Positions 8,453 through 56,337 of a stretch of 63,485 nt of DNA are shown here, piece after piece. The position numbers were made by a program, and so were the translations under genes. How positions within the stretch are numbered: the stretch's first letter is position 1; each line of letters begins with the position of its first letter. Where the stretch lies: NCBI GenBank assembly GCA_037445995.1, contig JBBIJK010000007.1, forward strand, positions 1 through 63,485. Reading direction: 5' to 3'. The stretch comes from Actinomycetota bacterium (GTDB lineage Bacteria > Actinomycetota > Coriobacteriia > Anaerosomatales > D1FN1-002). The notes under the pieces are model-generated. The model was not told the origin of the DNA. It saw nothing but the letters and a program-made list of their open reading frames with translations, and ran no database searches.

Positions 8453-9294
8453 CGCGGCACCCCCAGGGACGCCGCGACGCGGAGGGCCTGAACGCTGTCC
8501 GCCACGTCGTGCACCCGCACGATGTCCGCGCCGCTGGCCACCGCAAGGGCGGCTGCCGCGAGGCTGCCGGCGAGACGGGCGCCCGGTTCGTCGACGCCGG
8601 TCAGCTCCCCGATCATCCGCTTGCGAGACACCCCGACCGCCACCGGGTATCCCAGCGAGGCGAGGCGAGGCAGCCCTCGCAGGAGCGCGAGGTTGTGCTC
8701 GAGGAGCTTGCCGAAGCCGATGCCGGGGTCGACACAGATGCGGTCCCTTTCGACCCCGGCAGCCGCCAACCCCTCGGCCTGGCGCTCCAGCCACTCGCAA
8801 ACCTCCGCCACGACGTCCCGGTAGACCGGCGCGTCCTGCATCGTCCCGGGCTCGCCCAGCATGTGCATCACCACGAGTCCCGCGTCGCACCCGGCGGCCA
8901 CCCTGACCATCGCGGCGTCGCGGAACCCGCCGACGTCGTTGATGACGCTGGCGCCGGCCGCGACGCACGCCTCGGCGCACTCGGCGTGACGGGTGTCGAC
9001 CGACAGCGGTACCTCCAGGTCCTCGGCGAGCCGTCCGATCACGGGCCGGACCCGAGCGGTCTCCTCCGCTGGCGGGACCTCCGCCGCGCCTGGCCTGGTC
9101 GATTCGCCCCCCACGTCGATGACGTCAGCGCCGTCCTCGGCCATCCGTCCGGCGTGCGCGAGCGCCGCGAGCGGGTCTGCGAACAACCCTCCGTCCGAGA
9201 ACGAGTCAGGGGTGACGTTCAGGACCCCCATCACCAGCGGCCGGTCCAGCGGGAGCGAGAAGCGCCCGCAGCGCCATACGCGACCCGGTCTCAC
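8449..9294 (-). CDS. folP: Dihydropteroate synthase
   Basis: VMGVLNVTPDSFSDGG, DVGGESTRPGA, DPGIGFGK, GVSRK, RVHDV. Confidence 0.96.
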   Translation of the reverse strand: MRPGRVWRCGRFSLPLDRPLVMGVLNVTPDSFSDGGLFADPLAALAHAGRMAEDGADVIDVGGESTRPGAAEVPPAEETARVRPVIGRLAEDLEVPLSVDTRHAECAEACVAAGASVINDVGGFRDAAMVRVAAGCDAGLVVMHMLGEPGTMQDAPVYRDVVAEVCEWLERQAEGLAAAGVERDRICVDPGIGFGKLLEHNLALLRGLPRLASLGYPVAVGVSRKRMIGELTGVDEPGARLAGSLAAAALAVASGADIVRVHDVADSVQALRVAASLGVPR

Positions 9295-9569
9295 GCCCGC
9301 CCCCGGCCGACGAGAGAAGTCGCGACGCAGAAGAGCGCGAAGCCCGCTGCGGCAGCCACCGTGGCGGCAGGCCCCAGCGGGAGGTCGATCTGCGCGCCGA
9401 TCAGGACGGCCGCCCCAGCCGAGAAGGTCACGAGCCACAGGGTGACGCCGACGAACAGAGCGCCGAGCAGGGTCACGCCCGCCCGACGCCATCGTCCCTC
9501 GGCCGGCGTCGCCATCGAAGTGAGCGCCCATGTCGCCAGCGCGGCGGCGACAGCCAGCCAGCCGTACAC
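9291..9569 (-). CDS. Small membrane protein (about 3 TM), unknown function
   Basis: Fills the folE-folP gap exactly; three hydrophobic stretches. Confidence 0.7.
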   Translation of the reverse strand: MYGWLAVAAALATWALTSMATPAEGRWRRAGVTLLGALFVGVTLWLVTFSAGAAVLIGAQIDLPLGPAATVAAAAGFALFCVATSLVGRGRA

Positions 9570-9570
9570 C

Positions 9571-10134
9571 CTAGCGCCCCGTGATCAGCGCCATGGCCTC
9601 GGCGCGCGTCTTGGAGGAGCGCTCGAAGATGCCGCGCACGGCGCTCGTCACGGTGAGCGCGCCGGGCTTTCGCACCCCCCGCATGGACATGCACAGGTGC
9701 TCGGCCTCGATGACCACGACGACGCCGGTCGGGGCCAGATGCTCCACGATCGTGTCCGCCACCTGGGAGGTCATCCGCTCCTGCACCTGCGGTCGCCTCG
9801 CGAAGGTCTCGACCACCCTGGCCAGCTTCGAAAGGCCGCAGATCCTGCCCGAGGGTCCCGGGATGTAGGCCACGTGCGCCTTCCCGAGGAACGGCAGCAG
9901 GTGGTGCTCGCAGACCGAGTACAGCGGGATGTCGCGGACGAGCACCATCTCGCGGTGGCCCTCCTCGAAGGTCACGCAGAAGTGCTCGCCCGGGTCCGCC
10001 CCGACGCCCGCGAAGACCTCGGCGTACATCTCCGCGACCCGCCCGGGAGTGTCCCGCAGCCCGTCGCGGGAGGGATCCTCGCCGATGCCCTCCAGGAGCA
10101 GCCTGACGCCCTGGGCTATCTTCTCGCGGTCCAT
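9571..10134 (-). CDS. folE: GTP cyclohydrolase I
   Basis: [41 protein letters not shown]. Confidence 0.97.
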
Positions 10135-10181
10135 CGTCCCTCCGCAGTCTCAACCGCCGAACACCGGGCACCCACTAGGTT

Positions 10182-10251
10182 ACCCCACGCCGCCGCGGGG
10201 GCACGTGGCGGCTCATCACCCCACGCCGCCGCGGGCGGCCGTGGCAGCTCA
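10182..10251. repeat. Two tandem 34-bp imperfect palindromic repeats (36-bp period)
   Basis: accccacgccgccgcgggggcacgtggcggctca (10182-10215) and accccacgccgccgcgggcggccgtggcagctca (10218-10251); 4 mismatches; each can form a ccacg...cgtgg hairpin. Confidence 0.75.
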
Positions 10252-46877: not shown

Positions 46878-47321
46878 GTGAACGACCCTGCGACGGCGCG
46901 GCCCACGGCCGCTCCCCACCGGAGGCTCCGGCCACATCACCTGATCTGCCTTCGGTTCTTCCGCGGCGAGGGGTACGACGACCACTTCGTCGACAACCTG
47001 CGCGGGGTGATGTCCGACCTGGAGCGGATGGAGGTGCGCGTCGTCGACGGACCCGACGACGTCTGCGACTGCTGCCCGCACCTCCATGGGGACAGGTGCG
47101 GGTCCCCCGGGGGCGGCGAGGAGGAGGTGCGCCGCATAGACGCGCTGGCGCTGGAGCTCCTGGGGACGTCGCCCGGAATGTCGCTGTGCTTCGATGCGTC
47201 CGGCATCGACGAAAGCATCCTCGGCGCCTGGCGGAGGGGCGCATGCCAAGGATGCGATTGGGAAGACCTGTGCGTCCCGCTCATGGAAGCCGACGCGGCC
47301 GGTCCGCCCGTCGCCGACTAG
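46878..47321 (+). CDS. DUF1284-like Cys-rich protein
   Basis: LRPHHLICL..F.GEGY...FV.N, DDVC..CP, C..C.W...C. Confidence 0.82.
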   Translation: MNDPATARPTAAPHRRLRPHHLICLRFFRGEGYDDHFVDNLRGVMSDLERMEVRVVDGPDDVCDCCPHLHGDRCGSPGGGEEEVRRIDALALELLGTSPGMSLCFDASGIDESILGAWRRGACQGCDWEDLCVPLMEADAAGPPVAD

Positions 47322-47848
47322 AACTCTATCCCTCGGCGGGCCTCGACGCCGCCGTCGTAGGGGTGCTTGACGGCGCGCATCTCGGTGACCAGGTCGGCCG
47401 CGTCCAGAAGCCCGATCGGCGCGTTGCGGCCCGTGCAGACCACCTCCACGTGATCGGGTCGGTCCACAAGGGCCCGGAGCACGTCTCCTGTGTCGACCAG
47501 CCCGTGTCCCATCGCAACGCACACCTCGTCCAGGATGACGACGTCCCAGCTGCCCGCGGAGATCACGCGCCTCGCGACCTCCCAAGCCTCCGCGGCCGCC
47601 GACCTGTCCTCCGGGGTGATGACTCCGATCATCAGCCCGCTGGAGACCACCGCCGGCCGGACGATCTCGACCCCGGCCTCACGGAGCACCGCGAGTTCCC
47701 CGCTCGGGTCCCCCCCTTTCACGAACTGCACGAAGCACACGGACAGACCGCGTCCTCGCGCCCGGACCGCGAGCCCGCACGCGGCGGTGGTCTTACCCTT
47801 GCCCTCGCCGGTGTAGACCTGGAGCAGTCCTCTATCGATACGGGACAT
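47318..47848 (-). CDS. cobO: Cob(I)yrinic acid a,c-diamide adenosyltransferase
   Basis: QVYTGEGKGKTTAA.G, VQFVKG, VILDE, TGR.AP, KHPY..G..AR.GIEF. Confidence 0.93.
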   Translation of the reverse strand: MSRIDRGLLQVYTGEGKGKTTAACGLAVRARGRGLSVCFVQFVKGGDPSGELAVLREAGVEIVRPAVVSSGLMIGVITPEDRSAAAEAWEVARRVISAGSWDVVILDEVCVAMGHGLVDTGDVLRALVDRPDHVEVVCTGRNAPIGLLDAADLVTEMRAVKHPYDGGVEARRGIEF

Positions 47849-49109
47849 CCGCGCTCCCTCCAAGCACGCGCGCGACCTCGGCCAACGCGCCATCGTCATC
47901 ATCCACCGCGACAGCGCCCGCGTCGAGCGCCTCTCTCCAAAGCGCGGTCGCCTCGCCGTCGCCGAAGTCCCTCCGGGGGCCCATGCCGCCGACGAGGACG
48001 AGCGGGTCGCCGGCCCGGACCGCTGCACGGAGGTTCGCTATGTTGCCCCGGCCGAACGGCGTCGCGCTGACCACGCGGATGTCGGCCGAGGCCGCCAGCG
48101 TCTCCGTCTGACTGAGGGCGGCGGGGTCTGGCGAGCCGAAGGCGGGCAGGGTCACGTGACGCGCCCGGACGGCCTGCGCGACGGCCTGGTCGGTGTCGCC
48201 CAGCTCCAGGGCGCCGCAGGAGACCCGGAAACCGGCCAGCGCCAGACTCCGCAGCAGGCGCGCGCCGTGCCCCGCGCCGCCCACCACGAAGACCTCCTGG
48301 TCCCTGGTTGGCGCGACAGCCTCGTCGCGCAGGACCGGCGTCACGGTCGCCGAACCGGTCACCGGGTCCGTCCCGATCACCGCCCTGACCCCGAACACCT
48401 CCGAGACGTTCCTGGCCGTGAGCACCGCGCGAGGCGGCCCGGCTGGGCCCAGCGCGCCTTCGTGCACCACCGCCAGCTCGTCGGAGTAGCGCGCGGCAAG
48501 GTCGAGGTCGTGGAAGACCGCGAGGACCGCGAGTCCCGCGTCGGCGAGCTCCCGTACGAGGTCCAGGATCTGGAGCCGGTGGTTGAGGTCGAGATGGCTG
48601 ACCGGCTCGTCGAGAAGGAGCACCCGCGGTTCCTGCGCCAGCGCCTGTGCCAGCACAAGCCGCTGCAGGTCGCCACCGGAAAGCGTGTCGACCCGCTCGG
48701 CCGCCAGCCGCCACGTGTCGGTGCGGCGCATGGCGTACTCCACCACCCGCCTGTCCCGTTCCCCGGGGCCTCCGAGCGGCGGCAGATGAGCGTGGCGGCC
48801 CATCTCCACGAAGTCGAATGAAGGGAATGCGAAGGGCGCCGCGGTGGACTGCGGGACCACCGCGACCAGCCTCGCCCGCTGACGCTCCGTGAGGCTTCCG
48901 ACCGGGTCGCCGCACAGCTCGACGTCCCCGGCGAGGATCCCGGCCGCGCCGGTGACGGCACGCAGCAGCGTGGACTTGCCGGCCCCGTTCGGACCTACGA
49001 GGCCGACCACCCTCCCGGCGCCCACCAGCAGGTCAGCGCCTCGCACCACGGGGCCGTCGTCATAGCCGACGTCGACGCCGGCGAACCTCAGCGGAGACGC
49101 TTCGCTCAT
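47832..49109 (-). CDS. btuD: Cobalamin ABC transporter ATP-binding protein with C-terminal extension
   Basis: GPNGAGKST, LSGG..QR, LLDEP..HLD, HDLDLAARY; in riboswitch-led operon. Confidence 0.82.
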   Translation of the reverse strand: MSEASPLRFAGVDVGYDDGPVVRGADLLVGAGRVVGLVGPNGAGKSTLLRAVTGAAGILAGDVELCGDPVGSLTERQRARLVAVVPQSTAAPFAFPSFDFVEMGRHAHLPPLGGPGERDRRVVEYAMRRTDTWRLAAERVDTLSGGDLQRLVLAQALAQEPRVLLLDEPVSHLDLNHRLQILDLVRELADAGLAVLAVFHDLDLAARYSDELAVVHEGALGPAGPPRAVLTARNVSEVFGVRAVIGTDPVTGSATVTPVLRDEAVAPTRDQEVFVVGGAGHGARLLRSLALAGFRVSCGALELGDTDQAVAQAVRARHVTLPAFGSPDPAALSQTETLAASADIRVVSATPFGRGNIANLRAAVRAGDPLVLVGGMGPRRDFGDGEATALWREALDAGAVAVDDDDGALAEVARVLGGSADVPYR

Positions 49110-50134
49110 CTCGGCCTCTCCCCGCGGACCAGGAGCCATACGAAGAACGGCCCACCCAGCACCGCGGTCACGATGCCGACCGGGATCTCCACCGGGGCGA
49201 GCACGGTCCTGGCCACGAGATCAGCGAGGACCATGGTCAGGGCGCCGGCCAGCATGGACGCCGGCAGCAACCGGCGATGGTCGGGACCCGCCACGAGCCT
49301 CACGGCGTGGGGGGTCATCAGCCCGACGAAGCCCACGAGCCCCGACACCGACACCGCGGCGGCCGTCACGAGCGACGCCAACGCCAGGAGCAGCGTCTTG
49401 AGCCTCTCGACCGGCAGGCCCAACTCCGACGCGCGCTCGTCCCCGAGCAGCACGAGGTTGAGCTGGCGGGAGACGAGCAGCGAGACGGTGGCGCCGATCG
49501 CCAGCATCGGTGCGACCGCGACGACGTACTCCCAGGACGCCCCCTCGAGGCCGCCCATCATCCAGAAGACCACCGACGCCATCGACTCCCTCGCGAGGAC
49601 CATGATGAACGAGGTCACCGCGGCCAGCGTGTAGGAGACCGCGACCCCCGCGAGCAGGAGCGAGACACCGTCGACGCGTCCGCGACGCGTCGCCAGCCGC
49701 ACCACCAGGGCGACGGCGCCGACCGCCCCGAGGAACGCGCCGAGCGGCACCACCCCCGGCCTGAGCGCGGTTGCGCCCGCCGTGAGCGCGATGACCACCA
49801 CCACGCCCAGCCCCGCGCCCGACGAGACCCCCAGGATGTAGGGATCGGCCAGCGGGTTGCGGAAGACCGCCTGATAGAGCGCCCCGGCGACCGCCAGACA
49901 GGCGCCGACGAGCGCCGCCAGCAGCACGCGGGGCAGCCTGATGTCGACCACCAGGGCGTCGGCCAGGCCGCCCGGACCCGAACCGGCCCCCAGCGACCGG
50001 CCCAGAGCCGCGACGACGTCGGCCGGAGGGACGTACACGGCGCCGAGGGCCACGCCCGCCACCACCGCGACCGCCAGCGCCGCGCCCAGCGCGACGGTCA
50101 GGGTGACAGCAGAGCGCGGCCCTCGGACCGGCAA
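49106..50134 (-). CDS. btuC: Cobalamin ABC transporter permease (FecCD family)
   Basis: IRLPR, RNPLADPYILGVSSGA, GFVGL..PH, EIPVG...GGPFF. Confidence 0.85.
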   Translation of the reverse strand: MPVRGPRSAVTLTVALGAALAVAVVAGVALGAVYVPPADVVAALGRSLGAGSGPGGLADALVVDIRLPRVLLAALVGACLAVAGALYQAVFRNPLADPYILGVSSGAGLGVVVVIALTAGATALRPGVVPLGAFLGAVGAVALVVRLATRRGRVDGVSLLLAGVAVSYTLAAVTSFIMVLARESMASVVFWMMGGLEGASWEYVVAVAPMLAIGATVSLLVSRQLNLVLLGDERASELGLPVERLKTLLLALASLVTAAAVSVSGLVGFVGLMTPHAVRLVAGPDHRRLLPASMLAGALTMVLADLVARTVLAPVEIPVGIVTAVLGGPFFVWLLVRGERPR

Positions 50135-50144
50135 GTCGGGCCTC

Positions 50145-51131
50145 CTACTGACCGAACACGCCGGGGTAGAGTGCTGCCGCTATCGCCTTGACTCCCTCGA
50201 CGACCCTGGGGCCGGGCCTGGACACGAGGTTGTCGTCGAGCACGGCCACCCGGTCGTTCTTGACAGCCGACAGCGACGAATATCCCGCCCGCTTCCCAAG
50301 CTGCGACGGGTCGCTCATCGAGCCCTTCGTCGCCAGGTACACGTCCGGGTCGTCCTTGACCAGCTGCTCGAGCGAGTAACCGACGTACCCGCTCTGAGCG
50401 CCCGCGACGTTGACGCCGCCAGCGGCGCTGATCAGCTGGTCGATCAGCGTGCCCGACGCCGCCGTGAACAGCGGGTCCTGCGCGATCTCGATGAACACCC
50501 TGGGGGACTGCTTGCCGCTGATCGCGGAGCCGACCTCCTGGAGCGTGGCGCGCATCTCCCCGATCACGCGGTCCGCCTCTTGGGGTGCGCCCATGACGGA
50601 GGCCACCCGGGCTATCGCGCTGTACAGCTGGTCGAGGGTCTGCGGATCGACCACCACCACGACCGCCCCGGCCTCCTCGAGCTTGCCGATGACGTCTCCC
50701 TGCACGCCGCCGGTGGCGAACACGACATCGGGGTCGGCCGCGACGATCGCCTCGACGTTGGGCTGGACGAAGTCGCCCACCTTGGCGATGCCGGAGACCT
50801 CAGCCGGATAGTCGCAGAAGGTCGTCACTCCGACGAGACGGTCGAGCCCCGCGACCGCGGCGACGATCTCGGTGTTCGCCGGTGCGAGCGACACCACCTT
50901 CTCGGGCCTCGCGGCGATGACGACCTCTCGCGAGGCGTCGTCGATCACCGTGATCGGATACGGCATGCCAGACACAGTGTCGGGGGTGACCTGGCTGTCC
51001 GGCGCCTTCGCACCCTGATCGCCGGTCCTTCCGGTGAAGAGCACCAGCCCGGCGATGAGCGCCGCGGCCAGCAGCGCGACCGCCACCGCATACCGCTTCC
51101 AGCCGCCGCCTATATACGCCTTCGGTTCCAT
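50145..51131 (-). CDS. btuF: Cobalamin-binding protein
   Basis: VVSLAPANTEI, GVT.FCDYP, PNVEAIVA..PD, SRPGPR; first gene after the riboswitch. Confidence 0.87.
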   Translation of the reverse strand: MEPKAYIGGGWKRYAVAVALLAAALIAGLVLFTGRTGDQGAKAPDSQVTPDTVSGMPYPITVIDDASREVVIAARPEKVVSLAPANTEIVAAVAGLDRLVGVTTFCDYPAEVSGIAKVGDFVQPNVEAIVAADPDVVFATGGVQGDVIGKLEEAGAVVVVVDPQTLDQLYSAIARVASVMGAPQEADRVIGEMRATLQEVGSAISGKQSPRVFIEIAQDPLFTAASGTLIDQLISAAGGVNVAGAQSGYVGYSLEQLVKDDPDVYLATKGSMSDPSQLGKRAGYSSLSAVKNDRVAVLDDNLVSRPGPRVVEGVKAIAAALYPGVFGQ

Positions 51132-51178
51132 CTTGCGCGTAACTCCTCTCGCTCTGGTCCGCGGCCCCGGAAACGGAT

Positions 51179-51201
51179 AGGACCCGCCATCGGCGGGTCC
51201 T
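51179..51201 (-). terminator. Riboswitch expression-platform hairpin
   Basis: AGGACCCGCC-GAU-GGCGGGUCCU, 10-bp stem between aptamer and btuF start; weak U tract. Confidence 0.6.
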
Positions 51202-51279
51202 CGAGTCCGGGGGAGATACGTGGCGCCCATCTCGCATCAGGCGTCGCGATCCGGCCCCTTGTCCTCGAAGGCCACGTCG

Positions 51280-51405
51280 CGCATCCCGGGCAGGTCTCCT
51301 GACTTCGGGGGCCCGTTCGCCGGGCTCCTCTTCACAGTGGCGGGTCCGTGCCGGTCTCTCACCGGCTTCCCTATTCTCCCGCGATCGCGGGCACCCTGGA
51401 TGCAC
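51280..51405 (-). ncRNA. Cobalamin riboswitch
   Basis: Minus strand AAUAGGGAAgccGGUGagagACCggcacggacCCGCCACUGUGA...AAGUCAGGAGACCUGCC (B12 box) upstream of btuFCD-cobO. Confidence 0.93.
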
Positions 51406-51425
51406 ATGTTCGGTTGTCGTCGGCC

Positions 51426-51454
51426 ACTGTACGCGCCGCGCCGGAGAGACGCAA
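51426..51454 (-). promoter_or_regulatory. Sigma-70-type promoter for the riboswitch-btu operon
   Basis: TTGCGT-N17-TACAGT on minus strand immediately after the hgcB stop. Confidence 0.65.
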
Positions 51455-51457
51455 GCG

Positions 51458-51748
51458 CTAACAGCCTCCGGTCGAGCAGTCGCACGAAGGCCCGGTCCCG
51501 CGAAGCCAGCCGCTGATCACGCCGGCCGCGCAGCCGACGCCGGGCACGACCGACACGGCCCCCGCGGCGCAGTTTCGCGCGCACGCCCCGCACTCGATGC
51601 AGGCGTCGCGGTCCACGATGACCGCACGCGCCTCTCGCATCTCGAGCACCCCGTGCGGGCACACCTGCGCGCACATCCGGCAGCCCGTGCAGGCGTCCGG
51701 GTCCAGGGTCAGCGTCACCACGCCCTCGAGGTAGCGGAGCCCGCTCAC
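51458..51748 (-). CDS. hgcB: Mercury methylation ferredoxin HgcB
   Basis: Two CxxCxxCxxxC motifs including CIECGAC, the GVGCA motif, Cys-rich C-terminus; GTGA overlap with hgcA. Confidence 0.93.
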   Translation of the reverse strand: MSGLRYLEGVVTLTLDPDACTGCRMCAQVCPHGVLEMREARAVIVDRDACIECGACARNCAAGAVSVVPGVGCAAGVISGWLRGTGPSCDCSTGGC

Positions 51749-52827
51749 GCCAGGCCGCCAACGAACGCGGCGGCGACCCAGCCGGCCAGCGCGAACACCC
51801 CGGCGCCGACCTGCCAGGGAAGGGATCTCCGCATCTCGACCAGCACCCCCGAGAGCGACGTGAAGGTGGTGGAGCCTGTGAAGTTCATGGCCGCGAAGGA
51901 TGAGACGGCGGTCACGGCGGCGAGAGCCCAGACCGTCATGAGGGGACCCGCGCCGGCCGCCAGGAGCAGCGGTCCGGCGAGGACAGCGCCTGCCAGAGCC
52001 CCCTTGACCGAGAACATCCTGCCCGGGATCCACGGCAGCAGCGCGGGCGTCACCAGGGCGCCGGCGAACACCCCCAGCGCCACGGCCGCCACGAGCGCCC
52101 CGCCGCGCGCCACACCCTCCGCGGCCGAGTAGCCCCAAGGGCCCACCGCTCCGAGCGCCACCGCCGCGAACGCGAACAGCAGCGCCCGCGGGCGCCAGAG
52201 CGCCGACAGCTCGACCGGGACGAGAGCGAGCCTCTCCTTGAGGGTGAAGCCGACGCGCCGCATGCCGCCCTCCGCCGACATCCCGGCAGCGAGGAAGGCG
52301 AGGATGTCGCGCGCGCGGACTGGCCCGTACACGACGCGGAAACCGCATCCCGCCCGAACCTCGTGCGCGGCCACACCCGGCGCACCGAGCTGCGGCACGA
52401 CGAGGACCTGGTGGCTGACCACCTGCGCCAGCCCGACCCTTCGCACGCGCGAGACGATCTCAGCGGTCCCGAAGGTGCCCTTCCCCGCGGCGCACCAGAC
52501 GTTCACGCCTCGGGTGTCGATGACCAGGATCCACGCGTCGACGCCGCCAAGCTCGCCGCGCAGCGCGTCGAACGACAGCTTGTAGTTGGCGCTGACCAGC
52601 ACGGGGGACGAGTCGTCCGGCGAGCCCACCGCGTAAAGGCCGGGTCGCACCCGGTGGTCCGAGCGGCCGACGTTCCAGCGCACGCGCCAGCCTCCGAGCC
52701 GGTCCGCGAGGGTCAGCGTGGTGGACACGACCGGGACCGGGCCGGGAAGGGTCGGAAGCCGGCCGGTCACGAATCCCTCAGCGTATCGCGAGTAGTCCTC
52801 CGGCGAAGCCGGGCAGCATCCGCTCAT
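51745..52827 (-). CDS. hgcA: Mercury methylation corrinoid protein HgcA
   Basis: PGLYAVG, SANYKLSFD, cap helix GVNVWCAAGKGTFG, PQLGAPGV, C-terminal TM region with MNFTGSTTFTS.SGV..EM. Confidence 0.96.
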   Translation of the reverse strand: MSGCCPASPEDYSRYAEGFVTGRLPTLPGPVPVVSTTLTLADRLGGWRVRWNVGRSDHRVRPGLYAVGSPDDSSPVLVSANYKLSFDALRGELGGVDAWILVIDTRGVNVWCAAGKGTFGTAEIVSRVRRVGLAQVVSHQVLVVPQLGAPGVAAHEVRAGCGFRVVYGPVRARDILAFLAAGMSAEGGMRRVGFTLKERLALVPVELSALWRPRALLFAFAAVALGAVGPWGYSAAEGVARGGALVAAVALGVFAGALVTPALLPWIPGRMFSVKGALAGAVLAGPLLLAAGAGPLMTVWALAAVTAVSSFAAMNFTGSTTFTSLSGVLVEMRRSLPWQVGAGVFALAGWVAAAFVGGLA

Positions 52828-53147
52828 CGCCTGGCTCCCGGCAGCCCGCAGCAACCGCGCTCGCCGGCCGAACGGGCACGCGCCGCCAGGTCGGCCGCGG
52901 CGGCAGCCACCCGCTCGAACGCCTCGGGCGCCAGGGAGCAGTGAAGCCATGGGCCGACCTTCCGGGCGCGGACCAGACCCGCGTCCCGCAGTCGTCTCAG
53001 GTGATGGGAGGTCAGCGCGTCCGACGCGCCCAGATGCTCGGCGATCTCGCACACGCACTTCTCGCCGCCTGCGAGCAGCTCCACGATGCGCAACCTGTTC
53101 TCGTCGGCCAGAGCGGCGTACGCGCCAGCATGCCCTTCGGTCTCCAT
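52824..53147 (-). CDS. ArsR/SmtB-family metalloregulator
   Basis: ALADENRLRIV.LL, EKCVCEI, SHHL..LR.AGLV, C-terminal CC; ATGA overlap with hgcA. Confidence 0.92.
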   Translation of the reverse strand: METEGHAGAYAALADENRLRIVELLAGGEKCVCEIAEHLGASDALTSHHLRRLRDAGLVRARKVGPWLHCSLAPEAFERVAAAAADLAARARSAGERGCCGLPGARR

Positions 53148-53154
53148 GCCGGCG

Positions 53155-53184
53155 ATCTTAGTCAAATGAGCATTTGATTGTCCA
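53155..53184 (-). promoter_or_regulatory. Promoter of arsR-hgcAB with palindromic operator in the spacer
   Basis: TGGACA-N18-TAAGAT ending 7 nt before ATG; perfect 7-2-7 inverted repeat tcaaatg-ag-catttga at 53162-53177. Confidence 0.75.
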
Positions 53185-53233
53185 GCACCGCGACGACCGC
53201 GCGAGCGGCCGGACCTCGACTGGAGACGCCTCT

Positions 53234-53809
53234 CTAGAAGAGGCCCTGCAGGTCCTCGATGGACTGCGCGGCGTGCTCGAGATGCCAGTCCTCCAGCGAG
53301 AGATAGAAGCGGGGGTTGAAGACCAGACCCATGTGCACGGTCAGGTCGATCACCTCCTCGAGCAAGCCGTCCGCCTTCATGAGCAGGTCGACGGCCCTGG
53401 GGTTCACCCTGTCGTCGCCGGAGGCGGGAGGGACGAGGAACACCCGCTCGTCGCCCTCGCCAAGGACGATGTCGAACAGAAGGTTGCCCTCCGCGAGCAG
53501 GAAGACGCTGGCGCCGTCGGCCCCGATGTCCTTGCGGTACGACGTACCCTCCTTGCGGTACCCCGAGATCTGCGCCACCTGGGCGGCATCGACCCTCATC
53601 GCGCAAGGCGGGACCGGAAGTCCCCCGAGCACCTCCCGCAGATTGGCCAGCGCCACCAGCGTCCGCTCCGACAGGTCGATCTTCAGCGCGCACAACGCCA
53701 AATCGGCCTCGGCGACGGACCTCGCGCTGAGGAACACCTCCATCATCTCGCGCGGTTCGCCGGAGTACAGGAGGCGGAGCTTGTCGAACTCCCTGACGGT
53801 GCTGATCAC
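53234..53809 (-). CDS. Hypothetical protein (paralog A of 55759-56337)
   Basis: 191 aa from inferred GTG; shares EADLAL, LANLRE, AEGN, YLSLEDWHLEHAA with paralog B. Confidence 0.85.
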   Translation of the reverse strand: MISTVREFDKLRLLYSGEPREMMEVFLSARSVAEADLALCALKIDLSERTLVALANLREVLGGLPVPPCAMRVDAAQVAQISGYRKEGTSYRKDIGADGASVFLLAEGNLLFDIVLGEGDERVFLVPPASGDDRVNPRAVDLLMKADGLLEEVIDLTVHMGLVFNPRFYLSLEDWHLEHAAQSIEDLQGLF

Positions 53810-54021
53810 TGCGATACCAGTCTTCGATCCCGGTCCGGCGCGGCGGCGCGGCGGGAGGGGCGGGCGGCTCGTCGGTCGCACATTCCGTATCGGCAGCGGC
53901 TGGCCGCTTGATGAGCGCCCGGGCGGCACCTCGCGACGAGCGGAGGCTCAGAAGGGACGGTTGTGCCCGCCGATACAGCCCGGCGGCGGGGTGATAGAGT
54001 CGAGAAAGGAGGTGTCGGGCC

Positions 54022-54861
54022 ATGTGCCGGTTCTGCGTGCAGCACGGTGACGGTGACAGGTGGTATCGCGAGGCCGCCAACTACGCGGTCGACCTCGAGG
54101 AGGATCTCACCCGGCGCGGCTACATAGTCGACTTCATACGCGACTTCGACGCCAACCGCCGCCGGGCCCTGACCGGTCTCGAGGTCGTCGAGCGGCTCCC
54201 GGCGCCGCTGGAGCGGGCCCTGAAGTCGCGCTTCTCGGCCAAGATGCAGGTGAACCACTTCGGGCAGCCAGTTCCCATCGAGGAATGCGAACGCATCTTC
54301 GATACCGCCACCTCCATCGTCAGCCTCCCGTGCCCGTGCCGGACGTTCGCGGGCAAGCCCCAGGACGGCTTCTGCATCGCCATGACGGTGACGCCAGCGG
54401 AGCACATCCTCCGCGAAGGCATGGCCGGCTACGGGGACGGCCCGGACACGCTCCGGTTCGAGCGCCTGGACAAGGCCGGGGCCATGGAGCTGCTCCGCAA
54501 GGCCGAGGAGCGCGGCCTGATGCACTCGGTGTGGACGTTCCAGACCCCGTTCATCGCCTCGATATGCAACTGCGACCTGTCCAGCGGCTGCATGGCGATG
54601 CGCCTCACGGTCGGCCACGGCGCCAAAGTGATGTGGCGGGGCGAGGACGTCGCGGTGCTGGACGCCGAAGCCTGCTCGGGGTGTCGCGCCTGCATCAGGC
54701 GATGCCCGTTCGACGCGATCGGCGCGCCGGCGAACGGCGGACCGGTCGACCTCCGTCAGGAGGACTGCTGGGGCTGCGGGGTGTGCCGCTCGGCGTGCAC
54801 GCTTGGCGCGATCACGCTAAGGGACCGCCGCGAGGTGCCCGCGGTCGCCTCGGTCTGGTAG
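54022..54861 (+). CDS. 4Fe-4S dicluster domain-containing protein
   Basis: AGGAGG RBS; N-terminal CxxCxxH, CPC, CNC....C, two CxxCxxCxxxC motifs. Confidence 0.9.
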   Translation: MCRFCVQHGDGDRWYREAANYAVDLEEDLTRRGYIVDFIRDFDANRRRALTGLEVVERLPAPLERALKSRFSAKMQVNHFGQPVPIEECERIFDTATSIVSLPCPCRTFAGKPQDGFCIAMTVTPAEHILREGMAGYGDGPDTLRFERLDKAGAMELLRKAEERGLMHSVWTFQTPFIASICNCDLSSGCMAMRLTVGHGAKVMWRGEDVAVLDAEACSGCRACIRRCPFDAIGAPANGGPVDLRQEDCWGCGVCRSACTLGAITLRDRREVPAVASVW

Positions 54862-54887: not shown

Positions 54888-55574
54888 CTAGCCGCCCTGC
54901 TCGTCCGGCCCGGCTCCGATGCGCGTGCGGACCAGCGCGGCCGCCCCGGTCATCGCAAGGCCCCAAGCCAGCACCATCCCGAAGAAGGGCGCCTTGATGT
55001 CCCAGCCCGAGTTCAGCACCGGGTTGTCAGGGTGCATCAGGTTGGGGGAGGTCAGCAGGAGCGCCCAGAACCCGCACGCGAACGCCGCGTCGAGGGCGGC
55101 CGAGACGGTCCAGTGGTCGACCACGGCGTCGACGATGACGACGATGGCGGCACCGATGAGGATCCAGAAGGAGGCCTGCATCCTCGGCTCCGACCAGTTC
55201 ACGGCGCCCCAGGCCAGCTTGCTGGACACCATCCCCAGCACCGTGTTGGCCAGCCACAGCGACATCGCCACCCACCGCAGGGCGGCCTCCCAGCGATAGA
55301 CGCGAGCGCCGAGCCCTTCTCCGCGCTTCCCCGACGGGCGCCGCGCCAGCAGCACCACCGAGACCGCTCCCGCGAGGCCGATGAGGGTGAACATAGCCAT
55401 GTTGACCCAGGTCGACGCCCCGTGGAAGGTCACCAAGCGGACCAGCTTCCCCAATGACTGCTCCTCTGGCATGGCGAGAGCCAGGGCCCCGGTCGAGGCC
55501 ACCGCGGCCGCGACGGCCGCCCACAGCCTCCCGTTCCCGGACGGCAAGCGCCTCACCGCTGCGGCATCACCCAT
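54888..55574 (-). CDS. Cytochrome c biogenesis protein, CcmC/CcsA-like
   Basis: About 6 TM; FHG..W, Trp-rich AWGAVNWSEPR, MHP histidines. Confidence 0.72.
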   Translation of the reverse strand: MGDAAAVRRLPSGNGRLWAAVAAAVASTGALALAMPEEQSLGKLVRLVTFHGASTWVNMAMFTLIGLAGAVSVVLLARRPSGKRGEGLGARVYRWEAALRWVAMSLWLANTVLGMVSSKLAWGAVNWSEPRMQASFWILIGAAIVVIVDAVVDHWTVSAALDAAFACGFWALLLTSPNLMHPDNPVLNSGWDIKAPFFGMVLAWGLAMTGAAALVRTRIGAGPDEQGG

Positions 55575-55665
55575 CTCGCACTCCATTCCCTGTCGCCGAG
55601 AAGCCCGATGGCTCCGCTCGATCGATGTTTCCACGCGACCCTCGCACAGGGTACCAATCGGGGGC

Positions 55666-55681
55666 GGTGACGAAGGTCACA
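55666..55681. promoter_or_regulatory. CRP/FNR-family-like binding site
   Basis: gGTGA-cgaagg-TCACA matches TGTGA-N6-TCACA at 9 of 10 positions, in a divergent intergenic region. Confidence 0.5.
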
Positions 55682-55758
55682 TAGCGAACAGAACAGCGCG
55701 ACGAACGGCAGCACCTCTCCCGCCGCGGGCGCGTTTTCCCTTGCGAGAGGAGGCGACG

Positions 55759-56337
55759 ATGTTGGCGCTCACCAGCGGCATACAGGCGGTCCAGCCCTGG
55801 CTCCGGGACCCTGAGGTCCGGGAGCTGGCTTTGATAGTGCTCGCCTCGCCGCTGACCTCCGAGGCCGACCTCGCCCTGGTGGCGCTGGAGGACAGGGTCC
55901 CGGAGCGCGCGAGGCTGGCGCTGGCCAACCTGCGAGAGCTTCTCGCGGCCGTCCCGCAGACCCCGTGCGACATGGCCGTGGACGCCGCCACCCTGGCGCG
56001 GGTCGCGGACCTCGACAACGTGAAGGGCCACCTCACGGGCAGGTGCGAGGACGGGAGCGCCGTCGTGGTCATGGCCGAGGGCAACCGCTGCATGGACCTG
56101 TACGTCCAAAGGGGCCGGCGGCACATCTACTGGTCACCGGGCCATCACGCCGAATGCCGGATCCACCCCGACGCCGTCGACATGGTCCTGGAGCGGCCCG
56201 AGGTCCTCGCGCGGATCGTCGACGTCGTCATGGCGATGGGTCTTGAGTTCTACCCGGCCATGTACCTCTCGCTGGAAGACTGGCACCTGGAGCACGCCGC
56301 GGAAACGCTCGACGAGCTGGCTGCCCTGTTCTCCTGA
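55759..56337 (+). CDS. Hypothetical protein (paralog B of 53234-53809)
   Basis: GAGGAGG RBS, 192 aa; motifs shared with paralog A. Confidence 0.87.
   Translation: MLALTSGIQAVQPWLRDPEVRELALIVLASPLTSEADLALVALEDRVPERARLALANLRELLAAVPQTPCDMAVDAATLARVADLDNVKGHLTGRCEDGSAVVVMAEGNRCMDLYVQRGRRHIYWSPGHHAECRIHPDAVDMVLERPEVLARIVDVVMAMGLEFYPAMYLSLEDWHLEHAAETLDELAALFS

Follow-up and report, generated by a model that had tools for sequence, protein, structure and literature searches.

A predicted ArsR operator at an arsR-hgcA-hgcB locus of Anaerosomatales-like (OPB41) Coriobacteriia

In mercury biogeochemistry, both the control of hgcAB expression and the true role of this gene pair are open. How, then, would hgcAB be controlled where the pair stands directly behind a gene for an ArsR-family regulator? 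This question is raised by an arsR-hgcA-hgcB locus in a 63,485-nucleotide stretch of DNA (hereafter the window; GenBank assembly GCA_037445995.1, contig JBBIJK010000007.1) from an Actinomycetota bacterium that is placed by GTDB in the order Anaerosomatales of the Coriobacteriia. The window is contig 7 of 60 in a genome of 1.66 Mb rated 100% complete, which we call G000. A sequence-only reading of this locus had claimed a complete mercury-methylation operon under metal(loid) control. Our analysis indicated that the locus is likely a canonical arsR-hgcA-hgcB operon in Anaerosomatales-like (OPB41) Coriobacteriia, which ArsR would repress via a palindrome in the promoter. Comparisons were made with a relatives' sample of 41 genomes of the order (G000 included, spanning 25 families), with a wider sample of 201 Coriobacteriia genomes (93 of the order and 108 from seven other families), and, outside the lineage, with 80 named hgc loci from other genomes of many phyla.

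Identity of HgcA and HgcB

Frames and translations showed that the three genes are all encoded on the minus strand, in the order arsR, hgcA, hgcB from 53147 to 51458 (Table 1). ATGA (52827-52824) is common to the arsR stop and the hgcA start, and GTGA (51748-51745) is common to the hgcA stop and the hgcB start. Every element of the operon described in the sequence-only reading, including these 4-nt stop/start overlaps, was found in place.

Profile models, the check which that reading had proposed, placed both Hgc proteins above their NCBIfam equivalog cut-offs. HgcA matched NF040863 with 409.9 bits (cut-off 275; E 7e-123) over model positions 1-324 of 325, and HgcB matched NF040864 with 121.8 bits (cut-off 99) over model positions 1-92 of 93. 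The same reading had named a CFeSP-like or fused paralog as the outcome that would speak against it. As observed, HgcA gave 70.7 bits with the acetyl-CoA-pathway CFeSP gamma model, under the cut-off of 306, and 185.4 bits with the fused HgcAB-like model, under the cut-off of 285; hgcB is a separate gene that is not fused to hgcA.

The cap helix of the HgcA family, N(V/I)WCA(A/G)GK, carries the cobalt-ligating Cys, which is Cys93 in Pseudodesulfovibrio mercurii ND132. In the window, the cap helix NVWCAAGK spans HgcA residues 109-116 with the Cys at 112, and the motif was kept in 107 of 107 related loci examined. The N-terminal half of HgcA is a CFeSP-type corrinoid domain (PF03599, 49.3 bits, residues 56-176), and the CFeSP chain 4djd aligned to residues 57-183 (E 6e-11). 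The C-terminal transmembrane domain of the family consists of five helices. A hydropathy scan of residues ~210-358 showed four hydrophobic blocks, one of which was long enough for two helices; counted by hydropathy only, these blocks are compatible with five helices. Both the cap helix and the transmembrane domain previously noticed in HgcA were thus recovered.

HgcB contains the motif CX2CX2CX3C twice, as CTGCRMCAQVC (residue 20) and as CIECGACARNC (residue 50), the latter including the CIECGAC of the sequence-only reading. In ND132, HgcB has an extra Cys73 after the second cluster and a C-terminal pair, Cys94/95. The HgcB of the window has Cys73 within GVGC, and its C-terminal tail, SCDCSTGGC, bears CxC rather than CC. 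Among the HgcB tails of related loci (n = 102), 62 had CC, 28 had CxC, and 12 had neither. A sequence search of solved structures returned no HgcA or HgcB entry, the nearest being CFeSP chains and polyferredoxins. As judged from sequence, arsR-hgcA-hgcB was confirmed as a genuine mercury-methylation gene unit, with scores far beyond chance.

The promoter, its predicted operator and the regulator

We then analyzed the 86-nt gap upstream of arsR. It contained a promoter-like site, which was the sole sigma-70-like match in 50900-54200 (shuffle mean 0.1). Because the -10 ends only 7 nt before the ATG of arsR, the arsR-hgcAB mRNA is probably leaderless. The spacer of this promoter holds a perfect palindrome, which we predict to be the ArsR operator. 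Classical ArsR/SmtB repressors (SmtB, CadC, and R773 ArsR) use 12-2-12 operators. For SmtB/ArsR repressors, the described binding site is an inverted repeat, single or in two copies, at or close to the promoter (PMC8790569).

A search of G000 with TCAAAYN4RTTTGA returned a single site, also when one mismatch was tolerated; the control pattern returned none. As this operator was found nowhere else in G000, ArsR seems to be dedicated to hgcAB. Across the 41 genomes of the order, the same pattern gave 25 sites in 14 genomes, and the reversed control pattern gave 0 in all 41. Promoters of arsR-hgcA or of hgcA accounted for 21 of the 25 sites; another stood at an arsR ortholog that is not linked to hgcA, a further one at a different ArsR-family gene, and the remaining two were unexplained.

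Alignment of 14 ortholog promoters showed the common pattern O1-CAA-O2-TAnnnT-6/7 nt-ATG, in which the end of the first operator forms a TTGACA -35 and the second operator fills the spacer. The -35/-10 layout of the window promoter recurred in 13 related promoters. As for the operators, the window promoter retains the promoter-proximal copy only, and the distal copy was observed in 12 of the 13 related aligned promoters. At the site of the missing distal operator (53178-53200), the window is GC-rich, and only the TGGACA -35-like hexamer is left.

The relative G004 shows a different arrangement, in which arsR lies 9 kb from hgcA and carries a single operator. Here hgcA has a separate promoter, whose -35 is overlapped by an identical operator; this promoter also looks leaderless and has an equal -10-to-ATG spacing. 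Since the hgcA promoter bears this operator with arsR unlinked, the operator is tied to hgcA independently of operon structure. Among the 80 named outside loci, the strict operator pattern was found at the hgc locus in one, a Coriobacteriia record; a second match was in a deltaproteobacterial record, ~2.6 kb downstream of hgcA. An ArsR-family gene stood just upstream of hgcA in 24 of these 80 loci, with 30-43% identity, bar two Coriobacteriia records.

Three relatives showed further peculiarities. In G004, a small zinc-ribbon-like frame with two CxxC pairs (L120, 2424-2639, minus strand) comes after the unlinked arsR ortholog. In G024, ~1.2 kb with room for one gene (L114, ~9000-10200) separates the arsR ortholog, which has both operators, from hgcA. 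In G038 (L117, 7995-8982, minus strand), hgcA was broken into two neighbouring frames (covering query residues 31-208 and ~209-357), reflecting a frameshift or a pseudogene; arsR and both operators were kept.

The ArsR of the window scored 89.7 bits with NF033788 (cut-off 55) and 69.9 bits with PF01022 (cut-off 22). Its cysteines are C30 and C32 (CVC, alpha-3), C70, and C98/C99 near the C-terminus, and the CVC aligned with the CVC of the CadC chains 3f72/1u2w. Among 14 ArsR orthologs, the alpha-3 CxC and a C-terminal CC or CxC were conserved in all 14, and Cys70 in 12. An arsR ortholog (50-66% identity) was directly upstream of hgcA and on the same strand in 11 of the 27 hgcA loci of relatives. 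The subfamily is narrow and actinobacterial, as 10 of 252 matching proteins scored >100 bits, followed by a drop to 80 bits. G000 itself has five HTH_5 matches over the cut-off.

Like the classical ArsR/SmtB repressors, this protein has a winged helix, an inverted repeat at its own promoter (so that it would be self-regulated), and a CadC-type alpha-3 CVC. Unlike them, it has no N-terminal cysteine arm and bears a C-terminal Cys pair instead, and its predicted target is hgcAB, in contrast to the efflux or detoxification genes that classical members control. The third alpha-3 cysteine of R773 ArsR (Cys37, as cited in 10.1101/2022.10.17.512643) is also absent here. The closest described parallel in arrangement is ND132, whose ArsR/SmtB-family gene, arsR2, likewise stands directly upstream of hgcAB; according to the same preprint, this arsR-like gene is co-transcribed with hgcAB and arsenic-responsive. 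ArsR2 is described there as cysteine-rich, distinct from the other ArsRs of its genome and without ars genes beside it, and its homologs were found in Desulfovibrionaceae only (10.1101/2022.10.17.512643). Compared by the description in that paper, the ArsR2 site consists of Cys47/49/86/88, whereas the protein here has the alpha-3 CxC, Cys70, and the C-terminal pair. The words operator, promoter, and palindrome are absent from the available text of the ND132 preprint (10.1101/2022.10.17.512643), and the words operator and palindrome from that of a 2023 paper (PMC10349881); the wider literature was not searched for the motif. We infer that metal(loid) control of hgcAB is better founded than in the sequence-only reading, because the ArsR cysteine pairs are conserved and a conserved operator lies inside the regulator's own promoter.

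Distribution of hgcA and the genes around the operon

hgcA passed the cut-off in 28 genomes of the 41-genome sample, counting G000. Class-wide, it was present in 61 of 201 genomes, and all 61 belonged to the order (61/93); none of the 108 genomes from the seven other sampled Coriobacteriia families had it. The family of the order with the most sampled genomes carried hgcA in 12 of 34. Within Coriobacteriia, hgcA is a hallmark of Anaerosomatales.

Anaerosomatales is the order of Coriobacteriia formerly called OPB41, and it has two cultured species (PMC9686372). The sequence-only reading had described the lineage as known mainly from metagenomes. A sequencing-run search for the locus DNA listed four DNA runs, all subsurface metagenomes from a single study, and no RNA run. 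As for hgcA, McDaniel et al. reported it in 2020 from nine Coriobacteriia metagenome-assembled genomes (MAGs), all OPB41 (PMC7438021); lineage and gene pair are those of the window, and ArsR-like genes near hgcAB in some methylators are also described there. Similarly, arsR was located within three genes of hgcA in 14 of 31 confirmed methylators, and an upstream arsR was common in bacterial methylators (PMC10349881). The sequence-only reading thus overrated the novelty of the locus. What goes beyond the 2020 report is the prevalence within and outside the order (61/93 vs 0/108), the regulator subfamily, and the operator. A literature search pairing Anaerosomatales with hgcA found no paper.

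An HgcA tree was built by quick maximum likelihood (LG+G4, SH-aLRT only) and drawn by midpoint with no outgroup. Its 119 rows comprised the window, 106 loci, and 12 proteins chosen from 120 listed; the frameshifted G038 copy was excluded. In this midpoint-drawn tree, the HgcA of the window grouped at support 95 with three proteins that were unnamed or labelled 'Actinomycetota', and a 34-row cluster formed by Thermoleophilia, Coriobacteriia, and order-mates enclosed this group (support 91, not starred). Among named HgcA proteins, the nearest were from Actinomycetota and Coriobacteriia MAGs, upholding the actinobacterial placement. The 34-row cluster holds 15 loci of the order, 10 of them with an arsR ortholog directly upstream. 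Eleven loci of the order were outside this cluster, with an arsR ortholog in 0 of 11, and six of these formed one clade adjoining a 33-row branch with Thermodesulfobacteriota sequences. Because the arsR-linked loci cluster apart from these 11 arsR-less order-mates, the order may contain more than one hgcAB lineage.

A search for MerA gave none over the cut-off, and for MerB neither the search nor its control gave a match. Most relatives (G003, G006, G008, G019, and others) also matched the HgcA model weakly at a second frame, of 450-480 aa, which resembles the corrinoid protein of the acetyl-CoA pathway. In G000, hgcA was the sole HgcA-model match, and for this reason the organism may lack that corrinoid protein.

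Downstream of hgcB lie a cobalamin riboswitch aptamer and a set of importer-like genes (Table 1). The aptamer begins 44 nt past the hgcB stop and ends 41 nt ahead of the btuF-like start, and it was the sole RF00174 match in G000. The corrinoid assignment of the btuF-like gene is suggested mainly by the riboswitch standing in front of it. The btuD-like ATPase is ~170 aa longer than a plain ABC ATPase by a C-terminal extension, and its match to NF007082 covers positions 4-351 of 402. For cobA, the start at 47848 was set from the model match, and the open frame extends to 48028. The fold of the hgcB-btuF spacer had a minimum free energy no better than shuffles (z -0.49), so that neither a terminator nor an expression platform was callable. 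Adjacency of the riboswitch to hgcAB was rejected as a conserved feature, as in 36 of 36 relatives with a riboswitch match it was on another contig or far from hgcA; G002, of the same family as G000, was too fragmented to judge. The corrin-ring markers searched in G000, CbiC and CbiB, were both not found, while CobS and eight B12-binding-domain genes were present. The organism therefore looks like a corrinoid salvager that is apparently unable to make the corrin ring.

Table 1. Features of the arsR-hgcAB locus and of the genes downstream of it (positions in the window)
Feature	Position	Strand	Description
promoter-like site	53155..53184	-	-35 TGGACA (53184-53179), 18-nt spacer, -10 TAAGAT ending at 53155
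predicted ArsR operator	53162..53177	.	perfect 7-2-7 palindrome TCAAATG-CT-CATTTGA in the promoter spacer; arms 100% complementary
arsR	52824..53147	-	107 aa, ArsR/SmtB-family winged-helix repressor; NF033788, PF01022 (scores in text)
hgcA	51745..52827	-	360 aa, membrane-anchored corrinoid protein, cap helix NVWCAAGK; NF040863, PF03599 (scores in text)
hgcB	51458..51748	-	96 aa, GTG start, 2x[4Fe-4S] ferredoxin; NF040864 (score in text)
cobalamin riboswitch aptamer	51272..51413	-	RF00174 81.6 bits (gathering 31.5), model 1-189
btuF-like substrate-binding protein	50145..51230	-	PF01497 116.5 bits; BtuF model NF002894 105.6 bits, below cut-off 234
btuC-like FecCD-family permease	49106..50134	-	PF01032 328 bits
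btuD-like ABC ATPase	47832..49139	-	435 aa; PF00005 87.4 bits; best NCBIfam NF007082 'corrinoid ABC transporter ATPase' 329.8 bits, below cut-off 537
cobA/cobO ATP:cob(I)alamin adenosyltransferase	47318..47848	-	PF02572 192.2 bits; TIGR00708 175.1 bits (cut-off 167.75)

On the other side of the operon, the window contains two paralogs, 53234-53929 (minus strand) and 55381-56337 (plus strand), with 38% identity over 218 aa and both ending ...LSLEDWHLEHAA.... Neither matched a Pfam or NCBIfam family, and atlas matches reached only 0.82. Between them are a 279-aa protein with a C-terminal 2x[4Fe-4S] domain (54022-54861, plus strand) and a 248-aa hydrophobic protein (54888-55634, minus strand). 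A homolog of the paralogs was also observed 5 kb from hgcA in G008 (L101, 14641-15312).

In another relative, G009, HgcB reads on without a stop into an arsenite methyltransferase, giving a 392-aa frame (L107, 6808-7983, minus strand). The HgcB part covers residues 8-99 (115.6 bits, cut-off 99), and the ArsM part covers residues 119-391 (NF008823, 345.8 bits, cut-off 263). Unless it is an assembly error, this frame represents a natural HgcB-ArsM fusion.

Proposed mechanism and rival readings

In methylators, the methyl group of the HgcA corrinoid passes to Hg(II), with the cap-helix Cys ligating the cobalt, and HgcB, with its two [4Fe-4S] clusters and extra cysteines, returns the cobalt to Co(I) and may help to handle the metal. 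On the reading that we prefer, an ArsR-repressed arsR-hgcA-hgcB operon, the three genes would be translationally coupled and read from one promoter. An ArsR dimer would occupy the palindrome TCAAATGCTCATTTGA, located between the -35 and -10 elements, thereby shutting off arsR and hgcAB, until a thiophilic effector bound to its alpha-3 CxC and C-terminal Cys pair released it. The most likely effector, by analogy with ND132 ArsR2, is As(III); Hg(II), Cd(II), and a sulfur/redox signal are also candidates. Once expressed, HgcA would ligate cobalt by Cys112 and hand the corrinoid methyl to Hg(II), and HgcB would reduce the cobalt of HgcA back to Co(I). The corrinoid for HgcA would be imported, with the sole B12 riboswitch and btuFCD-cobA directly downstream.

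Several observations weigh against this reading. By tblastn, 13 of the 27 related hgcA loci had no arsR match, and two further loci had only a distant arsR-like gene with 38-40% identity, so that ArsR control is not universal in the order. The single operator copy in the window may make regulation weaker or altered. G000 has no Acr3 and no ArsB arsenite pump, and the regulator therefore stands outside the classical arsenic-resistance setting. The B12 module adjoins hgcAB in G000 alone and in none of the 36 riboswitch-bearing relatives. Furthermore, no member of the order is known to methylate Hg, and the paper on the two isolates, in its available text, mentions neither mercury nor hgc (PMC9686372).

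Alternatively, HgcAB may be genuine but selected for a different role, such as reductive dehalogenation of halomethanes or some other corrinoid-dependent transfer of methyl groups or electrons; Hg methylation would then be a side reaction. The dechlorination of CCl4 by HgcAB expressed in a heterologous host, described in a 2026 preprint (10.64898/2026.04.26.720869), the presence of hgcA in 61 of 93 genomes of the order, which suggests a housekeeping-type benefit, and the in-frame HgcB-arsenite methyltransferase fusion of G009 all point this way. However, the sequence holds nothing that separates these functions, and the regulator type indicates metal(loid)s rather than organohalides; we regard this role as possible though somewhat unlikely. 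The regulator could also sense redox, persulfide, or a metabolite such as S-adenosylhomocysteine (SAH) by its cysteines, tying hgcAB to sulfur or one-carbon status, and be no metal(loid) sensor. Weak, sub-threshold matches of ArsR to the sulfur-related models TsoR (57.1 bits, cut-off 115) and BigR (26.6 bits, cut-off 155) are consistent with such a sensor, as are the reported response of ND132 ArsR2 to SAH-related treatments (10.1101/2022.10.17.512643), the lack of arsenite pumps in G000, and the subsurface metagenomes from which the locus DNA comes. Nevertheless, the CVC of CadC with which the alpha-3 CxC aligns is a metal ligand, the C-terminal Cys pair, typical of thiolate metal(loid) sites, is kept in 14 of 14 orthologs, and no sulfur or SAH model reached its cut-off; a non-metal signal is unlikely.

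It is likewise unlikely that arsR-hgcAB and riboswitch-btuFCD-cobA form one seven-gene unit, in which read-through from the arsR promoter into the riboswitch would couple corrinoid import to HgcA. All seven genes are on one strand, the hgcB-to-aptamer distance is short at 44 nt, 50900-54200 yielded neither a terminator-like site nor a second promoter-like one, and the riboswitch is the sole one in a genome from which corrin-ring synthesis is apparently absent. Against this, the adjacency recurred in 0 of the 36 relatives mentioned above, the predicted fold has a GC-rich hairpin after the hgcB stop (though no better than shuffles, at z -0.49), and the eight other B12-binding-domain genes need an importer too. 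That hgcAB is an inactive relic or a non-methylating paralog is highly improbable. The split hgcA of G038 illustrates that such decay may occur in a relative, but here the frames are intact and match each equivalog model over its full length, HgcA keeps its cap-helix Cys, HgcB keeps its two Fe-S motifs and Cys73, and the GC content of hgcAB is the same as that of its surroundings, G000 being ~70% GC throughout.

A more far-reaching version of metal(loid) control is doubtful, namely that hgcAB is the selected metal(loid)-handling output of a dedicated thiolate sensing circuit, induced by As(III)/Hg(II) and wired in this genome to corrinoid import by riboswitch read-through. It is suggested by the sole operator at hgcAB, the lack of an arsenite pump, and the HgcB-ArsM fusion in a relative. 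If true, metal(loid) handling would be the selected function of HgcAB, which would then not be an accidental methylator.

The preferred reading, an ArsR-repressed hgcAB operon, leaves the picture of which organisms carry hgcAB unchanged. What it adds is a defined predicted operator, the order-wide prevalence of hgcA, and a testable regulatory model for a subsurface order, consisting of a 16-bp predicted operator, a probable leaderless promoter, and a Cys-pair regulator. G004, where the regulator is unlinked and the operator still stands at hgcA, provides a natural experiment for this model. As a hallmark of Anaerosomatales, hgcA in this order also bears on hgcA surveys of aquifers and other subsurface sites.

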